Under the pieces are notes generated by a model that did no database searches, had not been told where the DNA came from, and saw nothing but the letters and a program-made list of their open reading frames with translations. Below are positions 1-50,306 of a stretch of 64,000 nt of DNA, piece after piece. Position numbers and translations under genes: made by a program. The DNA comes from a virus: the IMG/VR virus record IMGVR_UViG_3300021141_000706; one strand, 5' to 3'. Numbering within the stretch: the stretch's first letter is position 1; each line of letters begins with the position of its first letter.

Positions 1-674
1 AGGCTGTCAATTGTTTACCACAATCTCAAAATAATACTTTTATATGTCTAAAAGAACACGTTGATAAATACCAAATAGATAAAACATTAAATAAATTTTA
101 TCCAAATTGTGATGTATTATCTATTAGTGAGACAACAGAAGGACAAGCTTGTACTTGTGAGTTAGGTGTTAATTTTTCAGATTTAGATTTAGAAAAACCA
201 ATATTAATTTCAGCTTGTGATAATGGTGTTTATTATGATGTTGATAAATATATGAGTCTTGTTAATGATGAGTCAAATGATATAATTGTTTGGTCTTTTA
301 GAAATAATCAAACTAGTAAAGTCAATCCTAATATGTATGCTTGGTTAAAAGTTGATGAGAATGATAATATAGAACACGTTTCTTGTAAAAAATTCATATA
401 TGATGATCCATTAAAGACTCATGCTATAATAGGAACTATGTTTTTTAGAAAGGCAAAATACTTTATTGATGGGTTAAACAAAAATTATCAAGAAAATATA
501 AGAACTAATAACGAGTTTTATGTTGATGATGTTTTAAATCAAAATATAAAAGAAGGATTAAAAGTTAAAGTCTTTGAAGTTGAAAATTATATTTGTTGGG
601 GTACGCCAGATGATTATAAAACTTATAATTATTGGGAAGAATATTTTAAAAAAATAAATAAAAAAAATGTATGA
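1..674 (+). CDS. Sugar-nucleotidyltransferase (NTP_transferase/GT2-like), 5'-truncated by the window edge
   Basis: Frame is open from base 3 (AVNCLPQ...TTEGQACT...ISACDNG) into the 252..674 ORF; TEGQACT, NNEFYV and WGTPDD motifs. Confidence 0.75.
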   Translation, partial: AVNCLPQSQNNTFICLKEHVDKYQIDKTLNKFYPNCDVLSISETTEGQACTCELGVNFSDLDLEKPILISACDNGVYYDVDKYMSLVNDESNDIIVWSFRNNQTSKVNPNMYAWLKVDENDNIEHVSCKKFIYDDPLKTHAIIGTMFFRKAKYFIDGLNKNYQENIRTNNEFYVDDVLNQNIKEGLKVKVFEVENYICWGTPDDYKTYNYWEEYFKKINKKNV

Positions 675-1761
675 TTATTTAATAGTTGGTGCTGGTTTAT
701 TTGGATCAACATTCGCCTATGAAATGACAAAGGCTGGTAAAAAATGTCTTATCATAGAAAGTAAAGAGCACATTGCTGGTAACTGTTATACTGAAAATAA
801 AGATGGTATAAACATACATACTTATGGCCCTCATATATTTCACACTAACGATAAAGGTATTTGGGAATGGGTTAATCAATTCACTGAATTTAACAATTAC
901 AGACACTGTGTTAGAGTTTCTTATGATGATAAGATGTATTCCTTTCCAATCAATTTAATGACCTTAAATCAACTCTGGGATGTTAAAACACCTGAAGAAG
1001 CAAAAACTAAGTTAAAGTCAGTTTCAATACCAAATGATAATCCTGAAAACTTAGAAGAATGGATTCTTTCTCAAGTAGGTGAAGATATTTACAAAACATT
1101 TGTTAAAGGTTATACAACTAAACAATGGGGTAAATCACCAAAAGAACTTCCAACATTTATAATTAAAAGACTTCCTATAAGAACTAGTTTTGATGATAAC
1201 TACTACTTTGATAAGTATCAAGGTATTCCAATTGGTGGTTATACAAAAATGTTTGAAAAAATGTTAGAAGGCATTGAAGTTAGAACAGGAGTTAATTACT
1301 TTTTAGATAAAGAGTATTATAATTCTATTGCGGATAAAATTGTATTTACTGGTAAAATAGATGAATTTTTCAACTATCAATTTGGTGAGTTAGAATATAG
1401 AACTCTTTCATTTGTTAATGAAAGATTAGATGTTGAAGATTATCAAGGATGTGCTCAAGTTAATTATGGTGACGAGAATGTTCCTTATACAAGAATCACA
1501 GAACACAAACACTTTGAAAAAAATGATTCTAAAGTAACTTGGATATCAAAAGAGTATTCAATGAAATATAAAAGAGGTGATATTCCGTATTATCCTATTA
1601 ATGATGAAAAGAATAATAAAGTATATAGCCAGTATAAAGAACTTTCTAATCAATATCCGAATATAATATTTGGTGGAAGATTATCTGAATATAAATATTA
1701 CGACATGCATCAGATAATTGGATCGGCTTTAACAAAAGTAAAAAAAGAATTAAATCAATGA
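667..1761 (+). CDS. glf: UDP-galactopyranose mutase
   Basis: GAGLFG FAD motif, HTYGPHIFHT, YQGIPIGGYT, GGRLSEYKYYDMHQ. Confidence 0.97.
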   Translation: MYDYLIVGAGLFGSTFAYEMTKAGKKCLIIESKEHIAGNCYTENKDGINIHTYGPHIFHTNDKGIWEWVNQFTEFNNYRHCVRVSYDDKMYSFPINLMTLNQLWDVKTPEEAKTKLKSVSIPNDNPENLEEWILSQVGEDIYKTFVKGYTTKQWGKSPKELPTFIIKRLPIRTSFDDNYYFDKYQGIPIGGYTKMFEKMLEGIEVRTGVNYFLDKEYYNSIADKIVFTGKIDEFFNYQFGELEYRTLSFVNERLDVEDYQGCAQVNYGDENVPYTRITEHKHFEKNDSKVTWISKEYSMKYKRGDIPYYPINDEKNNKVYSQYKELSNQYPNIIFGGRLSEYKYYDMHQIIGSALTKVKKELNQ

Positions 1762-2558
1762 AAAAGAAATGTGCTGTTTATACAATAGTTAAAAATGAAG
1801 ATTACTTTCTTCCAAAGTGGATTAAACATTTTAATAAATATTTTGACAAATCAGATATTTATATTTTAGATCATCAGAGTGATGATGGTTCTACTTCAAA
1901 TTTAGATGTTAATGTTACTAAGGTTGTTAATGATTTAGCATTTGATCACCAATGGCTTTTAAATACTGTTGAAAGTTATCAGTCAGTTTTGTTAGAAAAA
2001 TACGAGTGTGTTCTTTTTGCTGAGGTCGATGAGTTATTATACTGTACTAATAAGCCTTTGAATGAGATGATCGATGATTTTTTAAATGACGATATCAAAT
2101 ATTTAACAGCTCACGGCTATGAAATAAAACAACATAATGGAGAAACACCTATTAGTGTTAACGATGAGATAGTGATAAATAGAAACTATTGGTTTGAATC
2201 TTGGATGTATGGTAAAACTTTACTTTCAAAAATAAAACTAAACTGGGTTTGGGGATTTCACTACGCTAGAGTTATTAAGGAAAAATATATGTGGGATGAA
2301 AATAATATTCTTCAAAGAATTTATAAAAATAAAGAAGGTTTAGATTATGGTTTAAATTTAATTCACTTACATAGATGTGACTTTGAGTTAATGTATCAAA
2401 GACATGAGATTAGGTCTAAATGGAAACAAAAGTTTGATGGTGGTGGTAATCATAATAGAACAAGTGATAGAAGAGTATTAGAGCAATATTTTAATGATAT
2501 CCAAGGTGAAGTTGTACAAATACCTGAAGATCACAAAAAGCAACTTTATGGAATATGA
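1758..2558 (+). CDS. GT2-like glycosyltransferase
   Basis: VKNEDYFLPKWIKH, DHQSDDGS, EVDE motif. Confidence 0.7.
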   Translation: MKKKCAVYTIVKNEDYFLPKWIKHFNKYFDKSDIYILDHQSDDGSTSNLDVNVTKVVNDLAFDHQWLLNTVESYQSVLLEKYECVLFAEVDELLYCTNKPLNEMIDDFLNDDIKYLTAHGYEIKQHNGETPISVNDEIVINRNYWFESWMYGKTLLSKIKLNWVWGFHYARVIKEKYMWDENNILQRIYKNKEGLDYGLNLIHLHRCDFELMYQRHEIRSKWKQKFDGGGNHNRTSDRRVLEQYFNDIQGEVVQIPEDHKKQLYGI

Positions 2559-3241
2559 TAAACATTTATATTAATATAGCAATGGTTGGTTCTGTTAATC
2601 AAGTTCTTTGGGATTTATTGACAAGAATTAAACAAAGTGGATTATATGACTCTGCTAATAAAATATATTTAGTTTTTAATGGTGATAGAAAACAACTATC
2701 ATTTAATTTAGTTAGTGAAAAATATGTTATAATAGACGCTAATCCAGATATATCAAAGTGTGAGTTTCCAACATTAGATTTGATAAGTCAACATTGTAAA
2801 GAAGAAGATTTTAATGTTTTATACTTACATACTAAAGGCGTTACCAAACCAGGCTATCAACAAATAATTGACTGGACTAATTTACTATCTTATTTTAATA
2901 TAAATAAATGGCAAGATAGATTAAAAGATTTAGAAGATAATGATTGTTCTGGTGTTAATTTCTTTGGAAATCCAGATGATATAAATCATCATCCATCAAC
3001 TTGGGGTTACGGCAAAGCTCCTTTACATTATAGTGGTAATTTTTGGTGGTCTAAGTCATCTCATATTAAAAACTTACCTAATATGTCAAATTGGTTACCA
3101 GATGGTAACTATTTGAGATGGAGAGTAATGGCTGAGATGTGGCTTTGTCAAATACCGGATGGTAAATACAGTTGTGCTTGGCAATCAAATATAAATCACT
3201 ACCAACAAAATTATCCTAAAGAATTATATGAATCAAATTAA
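2555..3241 (+). CDS. Putative glycosyltransferase-like protein
   Basis: YLHTKG and HYSGNFWW motifs; sugar-gene context. Confidence 0.5.
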   Translation: MINIYINIAMVGSVNQVLWDLLTRIKQSGLYDSANKIYLVFNGDRKQLSFNLVSEKYVIIDANPDISKCEFPTLDLISQHCKEEDFNVLYLHTKGVTKPGYQQIIDWTNLLSYFNINKWQDRLKDLEDNDCSGVNFFGNPDDINHHPSTWGYGKAPLHYSGNFWWSKSSHIKNLPNMSNWLPDGNYLRWRVMAEMWLCQIPDGKYSCAWQSNINHYQQNYPKELYESN

Positions 3242-3455
3242 AACAGGAGCCGGTGGTGAAATCTATTCAAATCCTGAGGCTGATAAATTAAGTAGTCATT
3301 ATGGTCTCGATGTAGCTGATCAATTATCTGCTATGTTATCTGATGAAATAGCCAAAAGTATAGATAAAGAGATTCTAAAAAGTTTAGGATTAGAACCAGA
3401 TAGAAATAAAAGAAGAAAAAACTCTATTAATAAAATATTTAAAGACGTTGAATAA
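3228..3455 (+). CDS. Mini-protein: gp23 major-capsid-like fragment plus C-terminal tag
   Basis: HYGLDVADQLSAMLSDEIAKSIDKEIL resembles gp23 HGMDADAELSGILATEIMLEINREVV (recalled); ends RKNSINKIF. Confidence 0.75.
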   Translation: MNQIKTGAGGEIYSNPEADKLSSHYGLDVADQLSAMLSDEIAKSIDKEILKSLGLEPDRNKRRKNSINKIFKDVE

Positions 3456-4038
3456 TAGAAGGTAAAGCACCTAATTCAAGTACTTTAGATTTATCCAATA
3501 AGAATTCAATATCGTAAAAGTTAAAGTGAAATGTCATTGTAAATTCTTTAGAGTTAACTTTTTGTTGTGAATAATTAAAAGTATTGTCAGAAAGACCTTT
3601 AAGAATTATTTCATAAAACCTAATTACATAGATAGCATCTCTGTGTATATCAACACAAGTAATTGTAAAAGGATTAACCCAAGCATTATCAACATCTAAG
3701 TAGTGTTTAGTTAAAATATCAAACACTAACCAGTAGTTTAAGTCAGAGTCAACAGATCTAAATGTTACTGTTAAATCATGAGTTGAAGTAATATCTTGAA
3801 CGTTTTTAGCAGGCTTGAATTGTCTTTCTTTACCTCTCATATTAGTTTGTTTAGGCATATCGATTCCAACACCTGGAAAATTAACAGACTTAATAGTTGA
3901 GTTAACATAATCAATTACATTCTCATACTGTACCCAATTCTTTTCGAGAATTGGAGTATAAGTGTTAATAATTTCTTGTTTAATGAAATCACTCGGTAAA
4001 TTAAATATAAACTGACTACCTTGACTACTTAATCTCAT
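3439..4038 (-). CDS. Tail tube/terminator-fold protein (gp3/gp19-like)
   Basis: VNFPG...DLTVTFRSVDSDLNYW...FTMTFHFNFYDI; late operon. Confidence 0.6.
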   Translation of the reverse strand: MRLSSQGSQFIFNLPSDFIKQEIINTYTPILEKNWVQYENVIDYVNSTIKSVNFPGVGIDMPKQTNMRGKERQFKPAKNVQDITSTHDLTVTFRSVDSDLNYWLVFDILTKHYLDVDNAWVNPFTITCVDIHRDAIYVIRFYEIILKGLSDNTFNYSQQKVNSKEFTMTFHFNFYDIEFLLDKSKVLELGALPSIIQRL

Positions 4039-5960
4039 TGACCACCTAAGTTATTTTTTAAATTTATTGCTGCTTTACTAATTGATTGTTGTAACATATT
4101 AGCCTTTGACATACCTGGTTTAGCAACTGGTGCTGATTGTTTAACTGGTCTTCTTGTTACAACAGCTGTTTCTTGTGGTAACTTAGGATCTTTAATAATA
4201 GCAGGATTAGCACTGGAAGCCGCTTCCTGATTAAGACCGGAAACATTAGCAGCACTATCGTATATCTTAAATAATCCAGAGTAAACAACAGATTTAACTG
4301 ATTGTATATCACTAGTTATGTAAAATAAATTAATACCTGACTCATATAGTTTTTTAATATCGACAAATTTATTTTGAGTTATCTTAAATGATAATTGACC
4401 AAGATCTAAATTAACTGAACCAGAATCTGTGTAAAGAGGAAAATCAAAAGTTTTAGAATCATTTCTGAATGTTAATTTAATATCACCATATCCAGTCATA
4501 TTCAAAAAATCTGGTTTAGTATCACTACCATTAGCAATAGTAAATGTGATAATATTGTCAAAAGGATAAATATTGATAATCATTTTTCCAATACCATAAA
4601 ATAAAGTATTATTAAATGAAGCATTATCTGATTTACCAACTATATTAAACTTATCAACTAAAACAGGGAAAGGAACTTTTACAGTTTCAATTTGAATAAT
4701 TGGTGTGTTATTATTATTATTATTAGATCCAGATACTCTACCAGTTACTGCTTTGCTTATAGATATAGGTTTAGTTATTCTACCCATTGAGTTAGACATA
4801 CCAACTAATGATGGATCTATATTAGATTTAATATTATAAATTTTAGGTTTATTAGCATTTGTTAAATTAATCTTAGTTAAGTTTAGAGAGTATTTAGATA
4901 CTTCATCTTGTAACATACCATAAGAAGCTCTTCTAATGATATAAGAGTCATCTACAGCGTCTATTAATCTCATTTCAACATCTATGATAGCGGTTGTAGT
5001 TGAGTACTTAATAATAGGTCTATATTCAATAGTTTCATTAAAGTTATCATGTACAGTAACTGTTGTAGTTTTACCTCTAATGTTTTGTTCATACATTGTA
5101 ATGTTATATTGAACATAGTATCTGTGACCAATATTAAATGATTCATCCATAAACTGATTAAAACCAGCAATAGTATCATTATAAACACCGTATATCTCAA
5201 AGAAGTCACCATTAATTGAGTGAGCTACAACTAGACCTAATCTTTCGAACTCAGGAGTTTGAGGAACTGTTGTTGTTACTTTAGTTGATAAAATATATCC
5301 AGTTAATCCATTAACAGTTTGTATATTATCTATAAAGTGAAAATCAATAAAAACAGGAGATGTTATATTTAATCCCGCTCCATTTGTAAGATTAGCATTA
5401 ATACTATTTTCTTTTGGAACATTGTTAGTCTTTTGACTAGCTAAATCACTTAAAGATGGAATATTAATAGTTATATTCTTACCCCATAGTTTTTCTTGAA
5501 AAAGAAGTGGTGGACTTGTAAAGTTTAATAAATATTGTTGACTGACATCAGTCATGTCAAAGTAAAAGTTTGATATATCAAATATTCTAGTATTTGTAGT
5601 ATCAAATCCATAAACTTTAATAAAAAAACCTAAGTGTTCACCAAATGTCCAGTTTATAGGAACATGAATTTTAATAGTATCATGTCTAGTAGGTGTACCA
5701 GAAGCATACTCTTTTAATTGTAAAAATGAGTAATAAGATGGATTTACTTTAGCATACTTTTGAGTTACTGAATCAACTTTAAATAATTGATTACCCATTG
5801 TATTGCCGGTGATAGATGAAGAACCTGCTATATATGATTGTCTTCTATCTCTAGAGTCAACTAATATATCATAAGATTCACTTATTAAGTTACCATCATC
5901 ATAAATATATTCAAGTAAAACATCTTTGTCTAGTTTTACAAACTTAGAAATTTTTGCCAT
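4035..5960 (-). CDS. Large putative virion structural protein
   Basis: 641 aa, beta-rich; follows late motif at 5984; coupled to tail-fold gene. Confidence 0.45.
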   Translation of the reverse strand: MAKISKFVKLDKDVLLEYIYDDGNLISESYDILVDSRDRRQSYIAGSSSITGNTMGNQLFKVDSVTQKYAKVNPSYYSFLQLKEYASGTPTRHDTIKIHVPINWTFGEHLGFFIKVYGFDTTNTRIFDISNFYFDMTDVSQQYLLNFTSPPLLFQEKLWGKNITINIPSLSDLASQKTNNVPKENSINANLTNGAGLNITSPVFIDFHFIDNIQTVNGLTGYILSTKVTTTVPQTPEFERLGLVVAHSINGDFFEIYGVYNDTIAGFNQFMDESFNIGHRYYVQYNITMYEQNIRGKTTTVTVHDNFNETIEYRPIIKYSTTTAIIDVEMRLIDAVDDSYIIRRASYGMLQDEVSKYSLNLTKINLTNANKPKIYNIKSNIDPSLVGMSNSMGRITKPISISKAVTGRVSGSNNNNNNTPIIQIETVKVPFPVLVDKFNIVGKSDNASFNNTLFYGIGKMIINIYPFDNIITFTIANGSDTKPDFLNMTGYGDIKLTFRNDSKTFDFPLYTDSGSVNLDLGQLSFKITQNKFVDIKKLYESGINLFYITSDIQSVKSVVYSGLFKIYDSAANVSGLNQEAASSANPAIIKDPKLPQETAVVTRRPVKQSAPVAKPGMSKANMLQQSISKAAINLKNNLGGQ

Positions 5961-5983
5961 TTTTAGATAGATTATCTTTTGGT

Positions 5984-5992
5984 TATATATTA
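5984..5992 (-). promoter_or_regulatory. Candidate late promoter TAATATATA
   Basis: Exact motif upstream of the 5960 start. Confidence 0.6.
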
Positions 5993-6011
5993 AAAAAGAA
6001 AACCTTTCTTA

Positions 6012-8614: not shown

Positions 8615-9334
8615 TTATAAAAAATGTTTAGTTACTTCAGGTGTATAATTACCAGTAGTAAAAATCTTACAAAGGTTCTTATACTCTACATCACTTACTT
8701 TATAAAGTTGTAAGTCATTTCTTACAGTAGAAACAACATTGCCTGTATCTTCATCTATATAGTCTTCACCCCATATAGATGACGTTGGTCTAAATCCAGT
8801 TACCTCATATAATCTTTGTAAACACTCTATAAATATTGGTAGGTTTTCCGGTTTGAAAATACCTAAGTTCAAATAAATAATCGGATAACCCGGAATAATA
8901 TCATTTAATATATTCTCTTGTAATCTTTCAAGATAACTTTTACCAGCACTATTTTTTGATTCTTCAACTTCTGAAAAATAAACATCATTGTAGATAAGTG
9001 AACTTCGAGAGTTTTTACTAGCCATTTTAATCATATCATCTGATAGGGGTTTGGACAAATCAATAAACATATTTTTCCAAGTATCTTGAATATCTTCACA
9101 TTCTTTATTAATCCAATTCTCTTCAAAACTCATATCAGAAAATAATTGACTTCTAATAGCCCTTGATATATTATTAGTTGTAAAGAATTGATAACCTGAT
9201 TCGTATAATTTACATTTAGCTAGAGGTTCTTCATCTGTTAGATCATAGAATAGTTCTTGAATATCCAACTCAATAGGAAATTCAGATTTAATAATAACAG
9301 ATTCAAATAATTTATATGACTTTAAGTATCTCAT
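8615..9334 (-). CDS. Putative head-internal protein (N-terminal capsid-targeting-like motif)
   Basis: Starts MRYLKSYKLFES. Confidence 0.6.
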   Translation of the reverse strand: MRYLKSYKLFESVIIKSEFPIELDIQELFYDLTDEEPLAKCKLYESGYQFFTTNNISRAIRSQLFSDMSFEENWINKECEDIQDTWKNMFIDLSKPLSDDMIKMASKNSRSSLIYNDVYFSEVEESKNSAGKSYLERLQENILNDIIPGYPIIYLNLGIFKPENLPIFIECLQRLYEVTGFRPTSSIWGEDYIDEDTGNVVSTVRNDLQLYKVSDVEYKNLCKIFTTGNYTPEVTKHFL

Positions 9335-10590
9335 TATAAGTTTAATAATATTTTAAATGAATAATCATTAACATCAGTATCATCATCATACATTCTGTCA
9401 AATCTTGCCATATCAAAAACAACTTCTTCATAATCTAACTCTGGTAAAATACTTAACAAAGCTTCATCTATATCTGATTCTAATTTTTTAAGATTCATTT
9501 TACCTGTTAAATGTGAGTTATCATATCCACCTATGTTTATATTAATAGCTGGTTTATACATATCTAAAACTTTATCAACTGAATAATCTTTTTTCTTTTT
9601 AATATCATAACTGTGAATTGTAACGCTTCTTCTTTCATTGCCTGGAAATTCATCACCGTCTTTGAATCCATAATTATCAATATCAAAATTGACACAATTC
9701 CATTTTTTATCAGTTACATAATACTGTTCGTCACTTCTTCTTAACATTGTATTTGGGTAACTACCAATATTTAAAGTTGGTGAAATAATATCTATTAATA
9801 TATGTTTAACTATTCTTAACTTAGATTCTTCATTTACATTCATAACAGATATTAAACCATTGTATTTATTCTTATTTGGTTTATCATGATTTTCATAATT
9901 GCCATAAGCTATACATAAAACTGAATACTTATCTTTAGCAGATGGAATCTCATCATAAACATCATACATTCTATCATTTACGGTTTCAATATCAACCTTT
10001 GATAGTGAATTAAACATTTTATCAACTAAAGAAGTAATTTTTTGCCAATAACCTTCTCCAATAAAATGTTCTGTATTTAATCTAAGAGATGATTCACTTA
10101 CTTTATTGTTACTACGACCCCATTGAGAAGATTTTATATCTTCAAACCAATCATAGATACCATAATTCATTTGATTAGATTCTTGAATTTTATCAGCTGA
10201 AAAAATAGTTTCTAATTTAGGCATCTCATCATATATTTCAAACTTATCATATCCATATTTTTTATAGTCTTCTGGTATAAGTATTAAATAATTATCATTA
10301 GGATTTTTAGTAAATTGTTTAATAGCAAAATCTATAACTTTATCATGTATCATAGGAGCAATATGAGCTTCAATATTAGAATCAAAATAAACTACTTTAA
10401 CATTCAAGTCTTTTGATTTTGCCCATTTGTAAAACTCATTGGTAAACCAAGCACAATTGGCTTTATTTTTATCAAATGATTCTCCAAATCTAAGACTATA
10501 AACTTTAGACATATCAGTAATAAACTGATTAGCTATAGTTTCTAACTTAAACATCGATTCAAATATTTTATATTTAGTTAAATGTCTCAT
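9334..10590 (-). CDS. Putative head-internal protein with N-terminal Cys-His-Asp (papain/transglutaminase-like) domain
   Basis: MRHLTKYKIFES; NCAWF...HIAP...VIDFAIKQF; internal IQES and VSES. Confidence 0.55.
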   Translation of the reverse strand: MRHLTKYKIFESMFKLETIANQFITDMSKVYSLRFGESFDKNKANCAWFTNEFYKWAKSKDLNVKVVYFDSNIEAHIAPMIHDKVIDFAIKQFTKNPNDNYLILIPEDYKKYGYDKFEIYDEMPKLETIFSADKIQESNQMNYGIYDWFEDIKSSQWGRSNNKVSESSLRLNTEHFIGEGYWQKITSLVDKMFNSLSKVDIETVNDRMYDVYDEIPSAKDKYSVLCIAYGNYENHDKPNKNKYNGLISVMNVNEESKLRIVKHILIDIISPTLNIGSYPNTMLRRSDEQYYVTDKKWNCVNFDIDNYGFKDGDEFPGNERRSVTIHSYDIKKKKDYSVDKVLDMYKPAININIGGYDNSHLTGKMNLKKLESDIDEALLSILPELDYEEVVFDMARFDRMYDDDTDVNDYSFKILLNL

Positions 10591-11438
10591 TCTAAGTTAA
10601 GTTCTTTTAATATTTCTGTTACTTTATCAAGTCTTATCATTATTGACTCATCTTCAAACCAAGATTCAAGAGCTTCTGATTCATTTGTATCAAGTTGAGA
10701 ATACATATTCATTACACCTACTATATCTGTTAGTTTGAAGTTATTATTTTTTGGATCTAATAATATATTTAAGTTTTCTAATAGGTTTAGACTATCATCC
10801 CATAAAACTTCATAATCAGTTGTAAAGTATTTACTTATTATGTGTTCAGATGCTTCTGAGCCTTCTAAAAACGATTTTAGTTCGTTCCAATTTGTATTTA
10901 ATGATGGTTTAACATTTCTGTCTAGTTCATTAACAAGTAATGTCATATAATAAGCAATTGATGGTCTATCCAAATCTTCCTCTATAAAATCTTCATCTTT
11001 TGGTAAATTTGAAAAACAATTCCAAAAATCACTTCTATCACCAGTGGCTACCATAGTATCATCAAAAGGAATAATAACATAATCAACTGATGGTCCTTTG
11101 ATAAATCCACCACCATGTGACAATGCTCTATATGAAGAAGCACATATTAATGATTTGTTTCTTCTGGGCCAGTCTTTCCAAGATTCTAAATTAGAGATTA
11201 ATAGATTGTGATAGTTTTTAAAAGCATAAGGGGCAATTCTATCTTGTGATGAAATCTTTGGATTAACTAATAAAAAGTCACCACGATTTTCATCTTTTCT
11301 ATAAATTAAACAACCTTCAGTATAGTCTTTTCCCCAATTAAGAAATTTCTTACATTTTGTCATAAGTATCTCAATTACTTCGTCTTTTGTCAACGTAGTA
11401 GTATTTAGACTTTCATTTATGCTCTTTAAATGTTTCAT
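10587..11438 (-). CDS. Putative head-internal protein, possible ADP-ribosyltransferase-like fold
   Basis: MKHLKSINES; IYR...RNKSLICASS...YVIIP...ESWFE. Confidence 0.45.
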   Translation of the reverse strand: MKHLKSINESLNTTTLTKDEVIEILMTKCKKFLNWGKDYTEGCLIYRKDENRGDFLLVNPKISSQDRIAPYAFKNYHNLLISNLESWKDWPRRNKSLICASSYRALSHGGGFIKGPSVDYVIIPFDDTMVATGDRSDFWNCFSNLPKDEDFIEEDLDRPSIAYYMTLLVNELDRNVKPSLNTNWNELKSFLEGSEASEHIISKYFTTDYEVLWDDSLNLLENLNILLDPKNNNFKLTDIVGVMNMYSQLDTNESEALESWFEDESIMIRLDKVTEILKELNLE

Positions 11439-12755
11439 TTATTTACTTGCTTTAATAACTTTAATTCTTTCAGTTTGATATTTCATAATATCAACTTCTT
11501 GATGTTGCTTTAAGAAGTCAACCATCTTTTGATACATTTGAATTGTAATTCTACAATCAGTTAAGGCATCGTGATAGTTAGTCATATTAATTCCAAGAGC
11601 TGGTCCTACTTTAGACATAGAAGATGAAATTAAACCACCATCTCTTGATGATGTTCCAATAAAGTCAATTATATCTTTATATTTAGAATCTACTTCAGAT
11701 AGTTTTTGTAAAAGTGGTAAATAATATAATTGAATTAGCATCTTAGTATCAAATACTTCATTATTAATTTTATGACCATATCTACCAGCCAACATTGCCA
11801 TATCAAAACCAGCATTCTGTGCTATAAATAAACAAGGCTCATAATTGCCAGTCCAATCAAAGAATTTATCTAATATCTCTTGTTCATTTTTGTATTTGTA
11901 TTTACCTGAACCATAATGATTGAATCCTAATACCCATTTAGTTCTATCTTCTGGTGTACTAAATTTAGATTTAGTTTCATCTGTTAATTTAATCTTCTCA
12001 TCAAATAATCCTAATTCATTAAATGTATTTGATTGAAAACTATAATCAGTTGCTAAAGCAGATACTTGAGTTAATTGTTGTTGTTTAGGTCCACCTAAGC
12101 CTGTTGTTTCTGTATCTATCCAAAGCCATGTCATTTTAGATTTAGATTCTAACCATTCTAATATTTGTGGAATAGTTTTATACCACATTTTATTTTCATT
12201 TAGTGATTCAACTATACCTTGATTGTATTTGAAATTTACTTTTTCACCACTTGGCATTGAATAAGTTATATTATCAACATTCTTAACTTCATATTTATAT
12301 TCTGGTTTAACATATTTCTTACCAGTTCCTTTGTTAACATAAGCGATTGTTATATGTGGTTTGTAATCAGGGAAACTATTTGAGTTAGGAAACTCAGAAA
12401 GTTTATCATGTAAATCTTGAAGAGCACCATCAGGGTTAACATTAAACTTAACAACATCATAGTCTTTGTTTTCAAAAACACCAATACCATCAACTTCTAT
12501 ATTAATACTTCCTGTAAATCCTTCAAATACAGATTTAACATCTTCTTCTGTTACACCTTCATGTAAGCCGTATAATATAGTAACATGTGGATTTTCTTGA
12601 ATACCGTGAGCGTCATCACCACCAGTGTAAACATCTTCTGGATTAATGTAACTTGTTATCTCATCCCAGTTACTAACTGGAACTTCAACCATTACACAGC
12701 CATATTCATAACCAGATGATTCTTTTATAAATTGTATATAACTTTTAATTATCAT
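11439..12755 (-). CDS. Acb1/gp57B-like 2H phosphoesterase fused to DEDDh 3'-5' exonuclease
   Basis: HVTILYG and PHITIAY (two HxT); DTETTG, AQNAGFD, HDALTD; N-term MIIKSYIQFIKES. Confidence 0.85.
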   Translation of the reverse strand: MIIKSYIQFIKESSGYEYGCVMVEVPVSNWDEITSYINPEDVYTGGDDAHGIQENPHVTILYGLHEGVTEEDVKSVFEGFTGSINIEVDGIGVFENKDYDVVKFNVNPDGALQDLHDKLSEFPNSNSFPDYKPHITIAYVNKGTGKKYVKPEYKYEVKNVDNITYSMPSGEKVNFKYNQGIVESLNENKMWYKTIPQILEWLESKSKMTWLWIDTETTGLGGPKQQQLTQVSALATDYSFQSNTFNELGLFDEKIKLTDETKSKFSTPEDRTKWVLGFNHYGSGKYKYKNEQEILDKFFDWTGNYEPCLFIAQNAGFDMAMLAGRYGHKINNEVFDTKMLIQLYYLPLLQKLSEVDSKYKDIIDFIGTSSRDGGLISSSMSKVGPALGINMTNYHDALTDCRITIQMYQKMVDFLKQHQEVDIMKYQTERIKVIKASK

Positions 12756-13186
12756 ATTCTACCTTGTATTATTATTCTTCTTTCACCACCTCTATTATTA
12801 TATGAAAATCTGAAATCAAGTCCAGTTTCATCATGTAATCTTTTTACAGCAACTAAGAAATCTTTACCGTCTTCACTATCTGTTTCGTCTTCATTCATTT
12901 CCCAATTAATAGAACCATCTGATTTAATTTCACCGGTAATATCAATGTTTTTTTCATAAGGATTTTTATTTAGAGTCCAGTTTCTTGGATCAGATTCTTC
13001 TTTATTCATCATTCTACAATTAAAGTTTGGATTTTGCCAAACAGATATGCCCGATCCATAAGAAACATCTGATATCCAATGCCAACCATTATCTTCAAAT
13101 TCTTGAAAACAATCTTTTATAGAATCAAGAACTTGCTGATAGATTTGATTTTCGATTGATTCATTAAAACTTTTAAGATATTTCAT
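12752..13186 (-). CDS. Putative head-internal protein
   Basis: Start revised to MKYLKSFNES (13186), just after late motif. Confidence 0.6.
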   Translation of the reverse strand: MKYLKSFNESIENQIYQQVLDSIKDCFQEFEDNGWHWISDVSYGSGISVWQNPNFNCRMMNKEESDPRNWTLNKNPYEKNIDITGEIKSDGSINWEMNEDETDSEDGKDFLVAVKRLHDETGLDFRFSYNNRGGERRIIIQGRI

Positions 13187-13585: not shown

Positions 13586-13617
13586 AAAAAACCCACTCAT
13601 TTGAGTGGGTTTTTTTT
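13586..13617. terminator. Bidirectional intrinsic terminator
   Basis: AAAAAACCCACTCA-TT-TGAGTGGGTTTTTT between convergent genes. Confidence 0.85.
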
Positions 13618-13900
13618 ATTCTTCTCTATGAACTAATTTAATTTCATCTTCCCATCCTTCTGGAAGTTCTTCTTCCGGTTCTTGGTCAAATCCAAAATCC
13701 ATTCCAACTAGATAGTTCATAACTGAATCAATCATAATATCATCAGCTCCTCTTTCTTTCATATAAGCTTCATAGTCTTCTACTGTGTAGTAACCTTTTT
13801 CAGCCTGAAGTTTCTTTAATTCTGCTAATATACTAACAGCGATATCTTCATGAATATCTGATGATTGTCCATAAGCTTCGAATGTTTTTAAGTATTTCAT
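13616..13900 (-). CDS. Putative head-internal acidic protein
   Basis: MKYLKTFEA. Confidence 0.6.
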   Translation of the reverse strand: MKYLKTFEAYGQSSDIHEDIAVSILAELKKLQAEKGYYTVEDYEAYMKERGADDIMIDSVMNYLVGMDFGFDQEPEEELPEGWEDEIKLVHREE

Positions 13901-13902
13901 AA

Positions 13903-14334
13903 TTATCTAAAAATTTTTGAGTTAAATATATTATCTGATAATAAGTAATCAAAAGTTTGACTTACTTCTCCTTTACTTAAATCAGAATATTCTGTATCTA
14001 AAAGTAATTTAATTTTAGAATAAAGTTTAACTTGTTGGTCATTAAGTTTACCACCTTCTAAATCTTCTTCTTCTGATAATATTTCATCTAAGATTATTTC
14101 TAAGAATTTATTAGGATCAGATATACGACCACTATCAATAACTTGTTGAATTTCTTCAGATGTAAATGTTAATTCATTACATAAGTCACCTAATTCAGAA
14201 AGAATATCAGCCTTAGAAGGTTCATCACCTTGTTCAAATTCACTTTCATCATAGTTAATAATCTTATCAGCTAATTTGATAAATTCTTCAATTCTATCAA
14301 ATGATGCTTCGTTAAATTTCTTTAAGTATTTCAT
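13903..14334 (-). CDS. Putative head-internal acidic protein
   Basis: MKYLKKFNEA. Confidence 0.6.
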   Translation of the reverse strand: MKYLKKFNEASFDRIEEFIKLADKIINYDESEFEQGDEPSKADILSELGDLCNELTFTSEEIQQVIDSGRISDPNKFLEIILDEILSEEEDLEGGKLNDQQVKLYSKIKLLLDTEYSDLSKGEVSQTFDYLLSDNIFNSKIFR

Positions 14335-21742: not shown

Positions 21743-22487
21743 TTAAGGATTGTCTTATAAAGTAAGAAAGTGGTGTTTTGTTTAGTATTTCGGACTCAGT
21801 TAGATTTTCAGCTTCCTTATAAACACTATTCGTAAGAATAATTAATGGTTGAAATTCTCTTACTAAATTTTCCCAATTTTCATAAGGTTTTGTTAGATAC
21901 TCTTGTTTTTGTATTTTCCAACTTACTGGATACATATTTTCATCACCATCATAGAATTTATAATTCTTATACAAATATGGTTCATTATCAGTAAACTTTT
22001 TTAAAATATCATTTCCGATTTCTTCCCAAGATATTTTATTTTGTTTCTGATTTAATATATTAGTTAATGATTGAGACCATTTATGAAAAAGTTCTGTACC
22101 TGGTATAGTTCCTAATATTCCATTACAAAGTTTTTTATTGTACTTATCATCAGATTGAAGTATAAAAAATCCATCCTGATTCTTGATTATATCAAACAAT
22201 GAACTCAAATCGTTCATAACTACAGTGTCACTATCTAACCAAATACCTCCATATTTATATAAAATATTAACTCTTATAAAATCTGCCTGGTGTGCTGGAT
22301 GTAAGTTAAAAAAATAACTTGGAACCTCATCTAAATAATTTAAGATATTATTTTGGTTCAATAAGTGAACTTTATAGTTTATGCCATTATTAGAGTGATG
22401 ATAAATAAGACCTCTTAAAAACTTTATTAACTTATAATCAAATCCCGTCCAATATAAAAAAACGTTATTCTCAAATTTATCAACCAT
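21732..22487 (-). CDS. DxD glycosyltransferase (GT32/capsule synthesis)
   Basis: ADFIRVNILYKYGGIWLDSD. Confidence 0.85.
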   Translation of the reverse strand: MVDKFENNVFLYWTGFDYKLIKFLRGLIYHHSNNGINYKVHLLNQNNILNYLDEVPSYFFNLHPAHQADFIRVNILYKYGGIWLDSDTVVMNDLSSLFDIIKNQDGFFILQSDDKYNKKLCNGILGTIPGTELFHKWSQSLTNILNQKQNKISWEEIGNDILKKFTDNEPYLYKNYKFYDGDENMYPVSWKIQKQEYLTKPYENWENLVREFQPLIILTNSVYKEAENLTESEILNKTPLSYFIRQSLTSQ

Positions 22488-23545
22488 TAAACTGTAAAGT
22501 TTTTAGATGATTTTAACTTTTCAAGGGTATATTTTTCATCAAGTTCAATCTTCTTAGGAATCTTAATTGATATCTTTATATAAAGGTCACCTAAGCCATA
22601 TTGAATATCTGGAATACCTTTACCACTCATTCTGATAACTTTACCATGTTCAGTTCCTGGTTCAATTGTTACAGATATTTCACCGTGTGGTGTTTTAACT
22701 TTTACATTTGATCCAATAATAGCATCAATGACTGAAATGGTTTTCTCAACAATAATATTGTTATTTTCTCTTTTGAAAGAGTAATCATTCAATTCCTCAA
22801 TAACAATATGTAAATCTCCTGGTTGACCATTTCTAACATGATTACCAAATCCTGGCATTGATAATTGCATGCCATTAGATACACCTGCTGGGATATCAAC
22901 ATCAACAGTTTGTTCTTTAAAAACTGTACCATCACCTTTACAGTCTTTACATTTATTATGGACTTGTTGACCACTACCACCACAATCTGGACAAGAGGTA
23001 GCTTGTCTTATTTGACCAAATGGTGTGTTTTGAACAACTGTTCTTTGACCTGAGCCATTACAAGGAATACAATTTCTAACATCTGTACCACCTTTACCAT
23101 CACAAGTTCCACACTTATCTTGTCTTTTATATTTTAATTTCTTAGAGACACCTTTAAGAATTTCATCAATTGTTAAACTAACTTTAATTCTCAAATTAGA
23201 GCCTCTACTTTGTGGTTTTTGTCCACCACCATACCTTTGGTTAAAAGAGTTGCCAAAGATATCTCCAAAATTACTGAATATATCTTCCATATTAAATCCG
23301 CCACCACCAAATGGATTTCCACCGCCACCATTTGCCGATCCAAATCTATCATAGTTAGATTTTTTATCTGGTGTTGATAAAACATCATAAGCTTCAGCCG
23401 CTTCTTTGAATTTAGACTCTGCTTCTGGATTATCAGGATTTTTGTCTGGATGAAACTTCATTGCCATCTTACGATAAGCTTTTTTAATTTCATCTTCTGA
23501 AGCGTTTCTATCAACGCCTAATACATTGTAATAATCTTTACTCAT
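22487..23545 (-). CDS. dnaJ: Chaperone DnaJ
   Basis: J domain HPD, G/F region, four CxxCxGxG repeats. Confidence 0.97.
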
Positions 23546-23856
23546 GTTAATATTTGTCTTATTTTTGATTCTCTATATATTTGTATGGGTGTTTCGGTCA
23601 GTTTTATAGTTACCCATCTGTTATAATTTATTATAAACTCACTATTATAAACTTTGGCTGTCATAATTGGAAGTTCTTCGATTATTTCTTTGAAGATAGT
23701 ATTAGCATCTTCTAATTTCCAATCTTTCATATCAGTTAGTCTATTACAGAAATAATCCATACAAGGTGAAGCAGTGTCTATAACATTTCCTAAATACTTA
23801 TCGCCTTTGAATCCCTCTGGAGCCGAGTCTGATATTTCAACATACCAATCCGTCAT
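23542..23856 (-). CDS. Hypothetical protein with C-terminal tag
   Basis: Ends [11 protein letters not shown]. Confidence 0.6.
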
Positions 23857-24440
23857 AACAAATCATCTTTATTTTCTTCAAAGATTTGATTTATAGTTTC
23901 TTCTCTTTTATATTGTTTTAACATACCTTCAATTGCTTGTTCGTGATCTTCAATGTCTAGAACTTTTTGAACTAAACTAGCAACATAATTATCAACAATT
24001 AGAGTTAATGTTTCGGCAGTTCTATCGATATGTTCAAAATGTTGAAGACAATCTTTTGATTTAATAAACATATCAATTAGATAATCAATAAATTCATCAG
24101 CATTGAAGAACATAGTAAATAGTTTATATCTATGTCCATTATTATATCCTGTTTCTTTGAAAAGTGTTGGTGGGTCAATAAAGACCTTACCAAATACTCT
24201 TCTAATTGCCGGTAGTACTAAATCTAAAGTTTCATCTTCTTCGAGATATAAAGCTCCTTTGAATTCCTCTCTATCAAATAAATAATATTTTTCATCAACA
24301 ACATATTCTAATAAAGACTTAAACGAATGAAGATGTTGACTAGATATTCCTTGACATAAAGCGTCAATGATAGCTTTTTTATATTGTTCATCTTTATAAA
24401 GATCTAAGAAGCTTTTTTTATTCTCTACTTTATTTGACAT
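23853..24440 (-). CDS. Hypothetical protein with C-terminal tag and possible capsid-like LPAIRRVF motif
   Basis: LVLPAIRRVFGK; KREETINQIF. Confidence 0.55.
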   Translation of the reverse strand: MSNKVENKKSFLDLYKDEQYKKAIIDALCQGISSQHLHSFKSLLEYVVDEKYYLFDREEFKGALYLEEDETLDLVLPAIRRVFGKVFIDPPTLFKETGYNNGHRYKLFTMFFNADEFIDYLIDMFIKSKDCLQHFEHIDRTAETLTLIVDNYVASLVQKVLDIEDHEQAIEGMLKQYKREETINQIFEENKDDLL

Positions 24441-24889
24441 TATTGACTAATAACAATTTTTGGATGTCTGAAAGGTTTACCATTTAATGAATAACCTTTA
24501 CTAACAACATCAACAACACCTGGTTTACCAGTTGGAATTACACTAATAACTTCATGTAACTCATCATCATAAGTTTCAGTTTGAATAGTTTCAATACCTT
24601 GTGATTTCAAGAAGTTCTCAAGTTTTTGAGCAATAAGTTGAACTCCTTCTTTTGCTGATTCATCTTTGATGTTTTTAATAGCAATAGCCACATCATTGTC
24701 CATATCAAGAATAGAAGAAACCATATTTACTTTAGTATTAAATCTGATTTCTTCTTTATCTTTTTGAACTCTTCTTTTGTAATTTTCAAATTCAGCATAA
24801 AGACGAACATACTTATCTTCAGCTTCTGCCAACTTTTCAACTAAATCTTTTTCCTGAATTTGTTCGTTTTCAATTTGATTTTCTTCCAT
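24440..24889 (-). CDS. grpE: Nucleotide exchange factor GrpE
   Basis: RLYAEFENYKRR, HEVI, KGYSLNGK.FRHPKIVI. Confidence 0.95.
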   Translation of the reverse strand: MEENQIENEQIQEKDLVEKLAEAEDKYVRLYAEFENYKRRVQKDKEEIRFNTKVNMVSSILDMDNDVAIAIKNIKDESAKEGVQLIAQKLENFLKSQGIETIQTETYDDELHEVISVIPTGKPGVVDVVSKGYSLNGKPFRHPKIVISQ

Positions 24890-28430: not shown

Positions 28431-29618
28431 TTATTTTATTTTCTTAAATACTATTGAAACTTGTTTAAGTTTAATTTCAGTTACTTTATTTCTTTCTTTC
28501 AATCCATTTTGAACAGTTGGTGATGGAAATTCACTATTTCTATTCACTTTTAAATCAAGATTAAGTGACCAGGATTTAGTACAATTATCTAAATCAGATA
28601 ATAATGTATCTAAGTCTGAACCTGTTAGAACTAATTTATCATTAGAAGCATAACTCATACTTAACTTTTCAACATTAAGAGTTTGATAATATCTACTCCA
28701 AAGAGGCTTGTCAGTATCTTCATCATATCTACTTGAATACTCTTTAGCTGCCTCAATTATTTCATCTCCAAATCTTCCGTTTCTACCATTGTAGAATAAT
28801 GGACCTTTAACTTTATACTTTATAATATAGTTGAAATTATATTTTTCTTCTTTTAAATAATCTTTAATTCTTTCAGCAACATCATTTAATAAAGAATCAA
28901 CGTCATTTGAGTAAACAAGATTTCTACTTTCACCAACTTTAACATCTAAACTTAAATAATCTTGTTCTTTACTGAAATAAGGTTTTACATCAACTGGTAA
29001 TTCATCTTCAAGTTCTAAACAGATATCATCTACTAATTGTTGAACTTCTTTAACTTTTTCTAATTCATCATATTTTGCTATCATTATAATCATTGGAAAG
29101 TTAGCAGGATCTTTTAACTTATCAGGATAATAAGTTCCTTTAGAATTTTTCTTCATTATAAAATTTTCTCCTGGATAAATATCAGAATCACTTAATCTTT
29201 GACCTCTATAAGTATCATCTTGTTTAATTTCATCTTTAGAAATATAAATAACGTCTCTACCAATTTTACCATGTTCACCACCACCAGTTGACTTATAATC
29301 TTTGGCTAAATAAAGATTCCAATCTCTTAGAAGCATTGCTAATTTAAGTTTGTTTTCTGGTAAATCATCAATGCTTACTTTAGTTAGTTCATGTTTCATT
29401 ACTTGTTGGTCACCGGTTGAAAATGGACTATCTTTAAGACCAGTAGTTGCTCTTTTCATTTCTCTCCATCTAAGATTCAACATAGGATAGATTCCTAATA
29501 ACTTCTTACCTAAGAATCCTAAAATAGCTTGTGGTATAAATCTAATAGATCTTTTTTCACTTGATGTAAGTTCTTCGTTTACTTTATTAAAGTTGTTATA
29601 TGATTGTAAATGTTTCAT
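28431..29618 (-). CDS. Putative head-internal protein
   Basis: MKHLQSYNNFNKVNEE. Confidence 0.6.
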   Translation of the reverse strand: MKHLQSYNNFNKVNEELTSSEKRSIRFIPQAILGFLGKKLLGIYPMLNLRWREMKRATTGLKDSPFSTGDQQVMKHELTKVSIDDLPENKLKLAMLLRDWNLYLAKDYKSTGGGEHGKIGRDVIYISKDEIKQDDTYRGQRLSDSDIYPGENFIMKKNSKGTYYPDKLKDPANFPMIIMIAKYDELEKVKEVQQLVDDICLELEDELPVDVKPYFSKEQDYLSLDVKVGESRNLVYSNDVDSLLNDVAERIKDYLKEEKYNFNYIIKYKVKGPLFYNGRNGRFGDEIIEAAKEYSSRYDEDTDKPLWSRYYQTLNVEKLSMSYASNDKLVLTGSDLDTLLSDLDNCTKSWSLNLDLKVNRNSEFPSPTVQNGLKERNKVTEIKLKQVSIVFKKIK

Positions 29619-29622
29619 TATA

Positions 29623-30072
29623 TTAATCTATTTTTCTAAAAGCAAATGTTACAGAGTCTATCCACCAATTAGATTCAAACGGTAAATACTCTACTGATTT
29701 ATAATATCTATAATCAGGTATTTTTACAACATAAATATACTCTAATTCTAAGCCTAGTTCACCTTTTGCGTAAGATTCAGCAAATAGTAAATTTTCTTTT
29801 ATTTCATCTATGGTAAACCTTTTATGAGTTGGTTGTCCCGCCTCATCAATTATTCTTTTATCAACTGTAACATCTATCGTTTTAATAGTTTGATTTTTAG
29901 TTTGTAAATCCCAAGAACCAAAAGAATTTAATTCAGAAAAATCCATTTTTTGAGTAGTAGATTCTTTTACACTAACATTGAATCCATCGTGTTTAAGTTC
30001 TAAAAATAAATCTCTAAACCAAGAAAAATCTCCAGATTCAAATAACTTATTATATGTTTTTAAATACTTCAT
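29623..30072 (-). CDS. Putative head-internal protein
   Basis: Start revised to MKYLKTYNKLFES. Confidence 0.6.
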   Translation of the reverse strand: MKYLKTYNKLFESGDFSWFRDLFLELKHDGFNVSVKESTTQKMDFSELNSFGSWDLQTKNQTIKTIDVTVDKRIIDEAGQPTHKRFTIDEIKENLLFAESYAKGELGLELEYIYVVKIPDYRYYKSVEYLPFESNWWIDSVTFAFRKID

Positions 30073-30073
30073 A

Positions 30074-30493
30074 TTAATTATTATGTTTTGTGAAGTAAAC
30101 AAGTATGTCTATTTCACCTGCTGTATTTTTTAAGTCTTTAAGTTCTTCTACATCATAGAGTTCATAATCATGTCTATTACCAGATTCAAATTGACACATT
30201 TCTATTTTAGATAGATTAATATCATATTCACTCAAAAAATCTTCTAATCTAAAGATAGAATCTTCAGCTAATTGTTTTTTTTCACTTGATTCAATAAAAT
30301 CTATTTGTATTTGAAACTCAGATACCACATCATCAATATATTTATTTATATGTACATTAACATCTAAATCAATTAATTCCAAAAAGATATCCTTAACATC
30401 AGATTCTAACTTACTAAATAATCTTTCTGATTCAATTTCAAACTTATTAGGTGGATAAGATTCAAATATTTTATATGTTTTTAAGTGTTTCAT
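30074..30493 (-). CDS. Putative head-internal protein
   Basis: MKHLKTYKIFES. Confidence 0.6.
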   Translation of the reverse strand: MKHLKTYKIFESYPPNKFEIESERLFSKLESDVKDIFLELIDLDVNVHINKYIDDVVSEFQIQIDFIESSEKKQLAEDSIFRLEDFLSEYDINLSKIEMCQFESGNRHDYELYDVEELKDLKNTAGEIDILVYFTKHNN

Positions 30494-43435: not shown

Positions 43436-43841
43436 ATTTAACAATCTCAATTTTAGCCTCTCTTAAAAAATCTAAGCCAGAGGTGTCTTTATAGTCTTCA
43501 ATGTAGACTAATCGTTTTATTCCAGATTGTAGTATAAGTTTAGAACAATCTCTACAAGGAGAATGTGTTTGATATAAAGTACTACCCTCACAAGAATGAC
43601 CATGTTTAGCACACTTTAGAATAGCATTAGCTTCACCGTGAATAACATACCAATTAGTATCACCATCACCATTCTCACAAGAGTTATCAAAGCCTGTTGG
43701 TGTTCCATTATAACCATCAGATATAATCATTCCGTTCTTAACTATTAGGGCACCTACTTGTTTTCTACTACAATGTGAAAGTTTAGCCCACTCTGTAGCC
43801 ATATTCAAATAAGTTCTATCGTATCTTTCTTCCTTAGTCAT
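43419..43841 (-). CDS. dCMP deaminase
   Basis: SHCSRKQVGA, GYNGTP, HGEANAI, SPCRDC. Confidence 0.95.
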   Translation of the reverse strand: MTKEERYDRTYLNMATEWAKLSHCSRKQVGALIVKNGMIISDGYNGTPTGFDNSCENGDGDTNWYVIHGEANAILKCAKHGHSCEGSTLYQTHSPCRDCSKLILQSGIKRLVYIEDYKDTSGLDFLREAKIEIVKYGQGT

Positions 43842-43983
43842 TTTTAAATAGTTTATTTATTTTATATTTTCTAACCTCGTTTCTTTCCAGACCTAACATT
43901 TTAATTATCCAATCTATTGAAAAGTATGGAGTATTATATGATTTAATCATATCAGACATTATTTTCATTCTATCCTTATTCAT
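43834..43983 (-). CDS. Mini-protein (49 aa): portal (gp20)-like fragment plus tag; not in ORF track
   Basis: MNKDRMKIMSDMIKSYNTPYFSIDWIIKMLGLERNEVRKYKINKLFKND; 8-nt overlaps at both ends. Confidence 0.6.
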   Translation of the reverse strand: MNKDRMKIMSDMIKSYNTPYFSIDWIIKMLGLERNEVRKYKINKLFKND

Positions 43984-44128
43984 TGAATAATTTATTAATT
44001 TTTTTCTTTCTTATAAGTTTTCTAACACTATCTTTATATACCTTATTAAAGGCTTCTTTTGGATATATTCTACCATTGTGTTTATCATAGGCTTTTTGTA
44101 TAACACCTTCTAGAATATACTTACTCAT
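43976..44128 (-). CDS. Mini-protein (50 aa): prohead protease (gp21)-like fragment plus tag
   Basis: MSKYILEGVIQKAYDKHNGRIYPKEAFNKVYKDSVRKLIRKKKINKLFNE; start revised to 44128. Confidence 0.72.
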   Translation of the reverse strand: MSKYILEGVIQKAYDKHNGRIYPKEAFNKVYKDSVRKLIRKKKINKLFNE

Positions 44129-44294
44129 CTGGAAATAACTTTTTAATTTTTTCTTTTCTACTACCTCTTTTAAAATCATTTATAACATCAGCAACAGCAG
44201 GTGAAACAACCATATAATTAGCACTACCTTTAGTAGATGCTTTATGAATCATTTCAGATGCCTTTAATAATTTATTAATTAGTTCTTTACTCAT
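44121..44294 (-). CDS. Mini-protein (57 aa): major capsid (gp23)-like fragment plus tag; not in ORF track
   Basis: MSKELINKLLKASEMIHKASTKGSANYMVVSPAVADVINDFKRGSRKEKIKKLFPDE. Confidence 0.75.
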   Translation of the reverse strand: MSKELINKLLKASEMIHKASTKGSANYMVVSPAVADVINDFKRGSRKEKIKKLFPDE

Positions 44295-50249: not shown

Positions 50250-50306
50250 TTTACTTAACTTAGAATTTTAAGTATATATGGTAAATAATTTCTTTTGTTT
50301 AGGAAT

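Follow-up and report, generated by a model that had tools for sequence, protein, structure and literature searches.

A conserved mini-gene of huge T4-related phages joins an excerpt of the capsid spine helix to a C-terminal tag found on many phage proteins

The stretch of DNA analyzed here (the window) comprises 64,000 nucleotides of IMG/VR record IMGVR_UViG_3300021141_000706. It is phage DNA of 29% G+C. The database records nearest to it, LR756502.1 (642 kb) and LR745206.1 (635 kb), come from uncultured phages and carry no annotation. Genome-wide counts refer to a 476-kb relative, IMGVR_UViG_3300032236_002285 (G001), which is 97% complete and has 637 ORFs. Near the start of the window lies a 75-aa ORF whose reading on the plus strand was confirmed exactly as first quoted. 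The features of this gene and its surroundings are as follows.

3..3241, plus strand: sugar-modification operon closed by the mini-gene, with a nucleotidyltransferase-like ORF, Glf, a GT2-type glycosyltransferase, and a 228-aa ORF
3228..3455, plus strand: 75-aa mini-gene, ATG to TAA, with the stop codon counted in the coordinates
3228..3241, plus strand: 14-nt overlap between the start of the mini-gene and the stop of the upstream 228-aa ORF (2555-3241)
3279..3401, plus strand: capsid-homologous excerpt, residues 18-58, matching, in T4-type capsid and vertex proteins, the strand end and the first stretch of the spine helix (hhalign, PDB profile match, Pfam Gp23, AF2)
3387..3404, plus strand: inter-helix loop, residues 54-59 (GLEPDR; AF2 loop 53-58), whose length and sequence vary across the family
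3402..3452, plus strand: C-terminal tag helix, residues 59-75 (AF2 helix 59-74)
3414-3440, plus strand: tag core motif R63..S66-I67..I70-F71, then KDVE (from the tail logo)
3439..3455, no strand assigned: 17-nt convergent overlap between the end of the mini-gene and the 3' end of a conserved 199-aa gene (3439-4038, minus strand)

Placement of the mini-gene at the end of a sugar operon proved correct because Glf, the GT2-type glycosyltransferase, and the sugar-nucleotidyltransferase-like ORF all precede it; the UDP-galactopyranose mutase upstream matches PF03275 (E 3.6e-78). The 14-nt start/stop overlap implies translational coupling. In each of six IMG/VR or GenBank relatives, the mini-gene closes a sugar operon, begins before the upstream ORF has ended, and runs toward the same convergent pair of 199-aa and ~640-aa genes; the upstream sugar gene itself is not the same in all six. 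The overlap with the upstream gene measures 14 or 4 nt in every relative although the identity of that gene varies, and the convergent overlap with the 199-aa gene is likewise found in relatives L002-L005, L007, and L010.

[quoted passage not shown] Such a hit is present: the mini-protein alone scores 21.1 bits against PF07068 (cut-off 24.4; E 2.4e-4), with residues 21-53 on profile positions 162-194 of 376. Individually, 107 of 129 diverse family members match PF07068, with a best E of 1.5e-16, and no other family recurs. An alignment to the phage's own capsid protein had also been proposed and was carried out with the capsid proteins of the clade and of G001. Using hhalign, the family aligned with 29 capsid proteins of the clade such that residues 18-58 correspond to capsid residues 331-371 (probability 85%, E 6e-6, 20% identity), and when the family HMM was run against all 1705 ORFs of the window and G001, the best non-self match was the capsid protein of G001 itself (E 5.5e-7, 26.2 bits). 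Among 177,635 PDB sequences, the same HMM matched only T4 gp24 (1yue 184-224, E 1.6e-4, 24.8 bits) and T4 gp23 (residues 275-307 of 6uzc, E 0.16-0.56); the gp23 sequence given with the prediction agrees with the one in the printed PDB alignment. Mapped onto gp23, as had been suggested, the mini-protein falls on residues 275-307, in the spine helix, where gp23 residues 292, 306, and 307 also lie (PMC9546572). By alignment to gp23 and gp24, the excerpt therefore covers the strand end and the first part of the spine helix. These comparisons indicate that the mini-protein derives from the Gp23 family but is not a capsid protein, as the homology covers one segment only. Three clusters of such viral proteins (63-90 aa) already carry the automatic label Gp23-domain-containing in the ESM Atlas.

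Structure prediction by AF2 with the family alignment gave a weak N-terminal hairpin followed by a long helix (residues 16-52) and a second one (59-74) with a loop (53-58) between them; the mean pLDDT is 82.7, and within the first helix values are about 95 from residue 31. The mini-protein is thus modeled as two helices joined by a loop, a capsid-derived helix 1 and a tag helix 2. At 75 aa, it does not amount to a complete HK97 fold with A domain, P domain, E loop, and N arm. Compared with T4 gp23 and gp24 (PF07068, HK97 fold; PDB 6uzc, 5vf3, and 1yue), whose residues 275-307 and 184-224, respectively, are homologous to its residues 18-58, it keeps only about 41 of >400 residues and lacks the A domain, the P-domain sheet, and the E loop, and therefore cannot form a capsomer; it also bears an unrelated C-terminal tag and evolves as a family of its own, with members of 45-80 aa. 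A Foldseek search of the AF2 model against the PDB returned no match, and all that a wide VIA-align search brought up were unspecific long helices or coiled coils, with Z no higher than 4.3. The AF2 model of the capsid protein, built on a shallow alignment, had a pLDDT of 48.5 and is usable only as a low-confidence helix at residues 342-366. Co-folding of the mini-protein with the capsid protein of the clade scored 0.00, which gives no verdict and counts neither way.

The 75-aa ORF is a real small gene, conserved widely within a clade of huge phages related to T4. Homologues recovered in a word-indexed search fall into at least 412 clusters at 90% identity, nearly all of them 73-75 aa long, and 49 contigs, the longest of 215 kb, encode the identical mini-protein. 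Searching 1.8 billion representatives with a profile yielded 174 family clusters at 50% identity, nearly all of 42-80 aa. When 50,697 phage records were searched by tblastn, only two uncultured phages of 630-640 kb matched the mini-protein, and two Stenotrophomonas jumbo phages appeared only at E=1. Pairwise dN/dS between the mini-gene and its relatives is 0.09-0.35 over the whole gene and 0-0.28 over the tail, within which synonymous changes occur. Codon usage at the tag motif positions equals genome usage, which shows selection on the peptide and not on the DNA, and together with the synonymous changes it rules out the tag as a DNA-level motif. The same data bear on the idea that the ORF is what a duplicated capsid gene left behind, without function, or that it acts as DNA, for example as a promoter or recombination site, and happens to read as a peptide. 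Both the single-sequence Pfam score under the curated cut-off and the AT-rich DNA of the tail would fit such an origin, but the idea is hardly credible given hundreds of intact homologs of constant length, dN/dS values far under 1, the synonymous substitutions within the tail, the genome-like codon usage of the motif, and the lack of a co-directional downstream gene for the DNA to serve. Nor is the mini-gene a degenerate remnant absent from relatives, the outcome that the original prediction had named as fatal, since it is conserved and under purifying selection.

Along the spine helix, the mini-protein is identical to T4 gp24 at 12 of 28 residues and to gp23 at 9 of 25, compared with 7 of 28 for the capsid protein of its own clade. 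The low identity to the latter means that the gene is not a copy of the present capsid protein, and the family is an old derivative that evolves independently, with no recent copying. One explanation that builds on this difference is a weapon against co-infecting T4-like phages, in which consensus-like pieces poison the capsid assembly of the foreign phage while the diverged capsid protein of the producer is insensitive. Expression that is probably early (see below) would suit this role as well, but the family HMM scores the phage's own capsid protein (26.2 bits) about as highly as T4 gp24 (24.8 bits) and therefore gives no clear "foreign" origin, and we regard this explanation as very unlikely.

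Further tagged mini-ORFs lie elsewhere in the window:

44121..44294, minus strand: 57-aa tagged mini-ORF, a second capsid excerpt (Gp23 profile 222-259; Pfam Gp23 E 2.5e-4), with tail RKEKIKKLF
43976..44179, minus strand: 67-aa tagged mini-ORF (50 aa if the start is at 44128), with tail RKKKINKLF and no family match
43834..43983, minus strand: 49-aa tagged mini-ORF, whose module SID..I.K.LGLE.RN..RK..INKLF is common with the 75-aa family

As predicted, the 75-aa gene represents another part of gp23 than the 57-aa ORF (profile positions 162-194 vs 222-259), for which the G001 homolog also matches Gp23 (E 4.2e-5). The junction LGLE..RN..RK..INK[IL]F does recur in the 49-aa ORF, and the family HMM matches residues 26-48 of that ORF (E 9.5e-5), so that the two agree from the final third of the helix through the loop to the tail, in agreement with the idea of a shared tag and junction module. 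The likeness of the 49-aa ORF to a portal protein is weak (phrog_213, E 0.089).

Using the Gp23 profile and our own HMMs, the matches in G001 were the 564-aa capsid protein, a 258-aa partial paralog, and the following separate small genes, given by position on the Gp23 profile:

26-47: 144-aa gene
132-172: 66-aa gene
134-194: ortholog of the 75-aa gene
222-260: 56-aa gene
308-347: 86-aa gene

By these matches, G001 carries at least five tagged capsid pieces scattered over its genome. The claim that the capsid is tiled by scattered tagged ORFs is thus partly right, as the pieces are separate and sample conserved blocks, but they do so with overlaps and gaps. In a single-sequence phmmer comparison of small against large G001 ORFs, only the 144-aa N-terminal copy matched the capsid protein among the matches listed. 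That ORF (165780-166214) copies the capsid N terminus (E 2.3e-8); part of a 249-aa tail-bearing ORF (69912-70661) resembles the capsid protein (capsid HMM, E 4.8e-9), and a 170-aa ORF (421096-421608) is capsid-derived (E 6.5e-5). The 168-aa ORF of the window (38299-38805) has weak capsid likeness only (E 0.39). At 317295-317474 on the minus strand, G001 also encodes a 59-aa tagged mini-ORF with a body like the tail-fiber-associated DUF2793 (E 3.6e-4) and several tail-fiber PHROGs, so that the tagged excerpts extend beyond head proteins.

The second part of the mini-protein is a short C-terminal tag, R..K[IL]..[IL][LIF], that is found on about one in eight of the phage's own proteins, most of them small. 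In G001, the tail logo reads R-[DE]-x-K-[IL]-x-x-[IL]-[LIF] and usually ends 0-2 residues from the C terminus. A loose form of the pattern occurs within the 8 C-terminal residues of 74 of the 637 ORFs, compared with 13 +/- 3.8 for shuffled C termini and about 10 for internal windows; the R-anchored pattern, with the "...LGI" variant included, is found in 89 of 637. When the pattern was sought anywhere in G001 proteins, 40 of 59 matches lay within 4 residues of the C terminus. The tag is kept in 115 of 129 members of the 75-aa family, where the motif stands 2-7 residues from the C terminus and the last residue is acidic; in the ORF of one relative, the motif is internal. Tag bearers are mostly 45-180 aa long and without a Pfam or PHROG family, one NADAR domain excepted. 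About ten back-to-back small genes at G001 435493-439100 (minus strand) all end in the variant R[DE]xKLxxLGI. The tag is not a label of head mimics, given that it sits on 12-14% of G001 ORFs, nearly all of them unrelated to head proteins.

Several known roles were considered for the tag. It bears a likeness, as we take it, to the tail of the RB69 polymerase, which raised the idea of a clamp-binding peptide. That idea was rejected because none of the ten larger tag bearers scanned matched a replication-protein family, the NADAR domain being the only clear family match; a regular-expression search for a B-family polymerase found none. As judged by eye from N-terminal motifs, the window carries a GrpE-like, DnaJ-like, and DnaK-like set (22487-24889 and 33762-35648), and two tail-bearing ORFs with overlapping starts and stops (23853-24440 and 23542-23856) lie between grpE and dnaJ. 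For a DnaK-client site, which this arrangement might suggest, the motif is without a contiguous hydrophobic core. Compared with an amphipathic helix of the MinD/FtsA type, the tag helix has hydrophobic residues at i, i+3, and i+4, only three such positions.

A second terminal motif, MK[YH]LKx[YF], heads 42 of the 637 G001 ORFs at the N terminus, one of which also has the C-terminal tail. Many ORFs in the window start with MK[YH]LKx[YF]..F.ES, at 8615-13186, 13616-14334, 28431-30493, 59179-59754, and others. We take this N-terminal motif to resemble the capsid-targeting sequence of T4.

Two motifs are strongly enriched upstream of G001 genes, AATATATA in 133 of 280 upstream regions and TAnnTTTG in 68 of 280, and reversed-motif controls gave far fewer promoter calls. 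The first sits 20-29 nt before the ATG and precedes the capsid gene, its large neighbors, and the ~640-aa gene that adjoins the 75-aa gene; the second we take to be the housekeeping -7 element of Bacteroidota. As motif-based classes, AATATATA probably marks phage-specific promoters and TAnnTTTG host-type promoters. AATATATA also precedes a topoisomerase gene in the window and is therefore not strictly "late." Promoter-motif regions in the window are at 5961-6011 and 50250-50306. Both convergent neighbors of the mini-gene, 199 aa and 641 aa long (window 3439-5960, minus strand), are conserved and without a Pfam or PHROG family; the 641-aa gene has the capsid-type AATATATA motif 24 nt upstream, and the two may be unrecognized virion proteins.

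Tagged genes in G001 are distributed very unevenly between these classes. Assigned by operon, 57 fall under TAnnTTTG and 3 under AATATATA (Fisher 1e-11), and operons with tagged genes make up 22 of 63 with TAnnTTTG vs 2 of 85 with AATATATA (7e-8). Genes with the N-terminal tag like that of T4 lean oppositely (19 AATATATA vs 9 TAnnTTTG). The C-terminal tag has the look of a marker for proteins made from host-type promoters, probably early, and not for head cargo. For the sugar operon that ends in the 75-aa gene, no gap and neither promoter motif was found within 6 kb upstream in six relatives, and the operon in G001 has only a terminator-like hairpin ahead of it. The only recognizable upstream motif of the operon with the three-gene tagged cassette of the window is of the AATATATA type. 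Both observations count against the explanation that we favor below.

This promoter bias, together with the location of the gene, bears on a role as a head-assembly accessory, i.e., a small core- or scaffold-like component or a modulator of assembly or folding that pairs with the capsid protein as the prohead forms, like T4 gp67/gp68. Descent from the capsid protein would be in keeping with such a role, as would the 66-aa piece and the 249-aa capsid-like tagged ORF that lie within the head-gene region of G001 and the gp31-bypass positions carried by the counterpart helix in T4, which link it to capsid-protein folding. The 75-aa gene, however, belongs to a sugar operon that lies apart from the head genes, and tagged genes are strongly depleted from operons with the promoter motif of the capsid gene. 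GroEL and GroES were not found in G001, which eliminates a chaperonin link there. A head-assembly accessory is therefore decidedly unlikely in our assessment.

The timing bears as well on a passive immune decoy, the role put forward in the original prediction, in which the excerpts copy capsid segments bound by host pattern-recognition defenses and soak up or block the sensors. The pieces correspond to those capsid segments that are most conserved, excerpts appear to come from several core proteins, and tagged genes are mostly in probable early operons and so would be present before the capsid protein. The closer likeness of the helix to T4 gp24 and gp23 than to the phage's own capsid protein would also suit a decoy, and STAND receptors are documented with which bacteria sense core proteins of phages (PMC13581612). 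Against this, no sensor is known for this host or capsid segment, a fragment bearing the epitope might trigger a sensor instead of blocking it, and the same tag occurs on about 80 unrelated proteins and is therefore not a decoy-specific device. On balance we consider a purely passive decoy unlikely.

A candidate reader of the tag is encoded by the phages themselves. G001 has a ClpP (E 1.8e-55) and a 710-aa ClpC-like unfoldase with AAA, AAA_lid_9, UVR motif, AAA_2, and D2-small domains; as examined in G001, the unfoldase has a loop of the VGF ClpP-docking type and is without a Clp_N domain. The two genes occupy 284643-286775 and 440754-441512, and the ClpC-like gene adjoins the upstream side of the sugar operon that carries the ortholog of the 75-aa gene. 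LR756502.1 encodes three ClpP genes and one ClpC-like unfoldase. Based on co-occurrence in these two genomes, the phage ClpC-like/ClpP machine could read the tag.

Comparisons with known systems place the mini-protein beside several precedents. The Gol peptide corresponds roughly to residues 93-122 of gp23. Like this peptide of the Gol/Lit/EF-Tu exclusion system, which acts alone in trans, the mini-protein is a short linear stretch of a capsid protein, but Gol is no separate gene and is untagged, and the mini-protein aligns to gp23 275-307 and so does not correspond to the stretch that activates Lit. The tag recalls the capsid-targeting sequence of T4 IPI, IPII, IPIII, and Alt in that it is a short terminal label on many unrelated phage proteins. 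The T4 sequence, with a consensus like MKTYQEFIAE that ends in a protease site, is N-terminal and cleaved, whereas the tag here is C-terminal and the mini-protein begins with MNQIKTGAGG, so it does not qualify as capsid-targeted cargo of the T4 type. Tags read by Clp proteases (ssrA/SspB and the MuA C terminus) are also short basic-hydrophobic motifs near the C terminus of many proteins. The motif sequence is unrelated to these. An ssrA-like degron, as recognized by ClpX or ClpA, has non-polar last residues at a free C terminus; genome-wide the tag usually ends 0-2 residues from the C terminus, and in the mini-protein KDVE follows it, giving the acidic end of the 75-aa family. This placement with an acidic end, and the internal motif in one relative, both differ from classic degrons of the ssrA type. 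Eukaryotic microProteins such as the Id proteins and LITTLE ZIPPER are stand-alone excerpts of an interaction surface with the rest of the parent absent, and the capsid homology makes the mini-protein a small protein from one interaction module of a larger one. These microProteins act by competitive binding, and the mini-protein is likened to them by architecture and origin only; its added shared tag is without counterpart among them. Our literature search found nothing that describes capsid-fragment mini-proteins or this tag.

The best-supported description is a tagged microProtein, in which an excerpt of the capsid spine helix is joined to a C-terminal label found across the proteome. The excerpt, helix 1, was taken long ago from the strand end and spine helix of gp23/gp24 and is far too short for the HK97 fold. 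As an explanation of what it does, we tentatively favor, at less than even confidence, a microProtein-type mimic of the capsid helix that is coupled to a shared reader of the tag. Helix 1 would fill the site that otherwise binds this segment, the most conserved of the capsid protein; the site might belong to a folding or assembly partner or to a host sensor. The tag would then connect the mimic with a reader that all tagged proteins share, for which our favored candidate is the phage's own ClpC-like/ClpP machine, with timed removal or delivery as the possible outcome. A far more speculative extension, which we would call a long shot, is that tagged baits are made from conserved segments of core virion proteins to which host immune receptors have adapted and that the tag hands the catch to the phage ClpC-like/ClpP machine, with the ~80 other tagged proteins acting as adaptors that destroy host proteins. 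If true, this would be a phage-encoded system of targeted proteolysis.

What is new here is the breadth of the family, its structural mapping, the promoter bias of the tagged genes, and a candidate reader of the tag. Abundant in freshwater metagenomes but missing from cultured phages, the family offers a clean subject for heterologous testing. It appears that huge phages put the most conserved pieces of their virion proteins to a second use as free-standing, labeled microproteins, and about an eighth of the proteome appears to be labeled with one terminal peptide. Identifying the reader, be it a protease, a chaperone, a membrane, or another partner, would give a common logic to dozens of uncharacterized genes per genome and would tell whether peptides derived from the capsid serve to regulate assembly, to combat competing phages, or to weaken host immunity.
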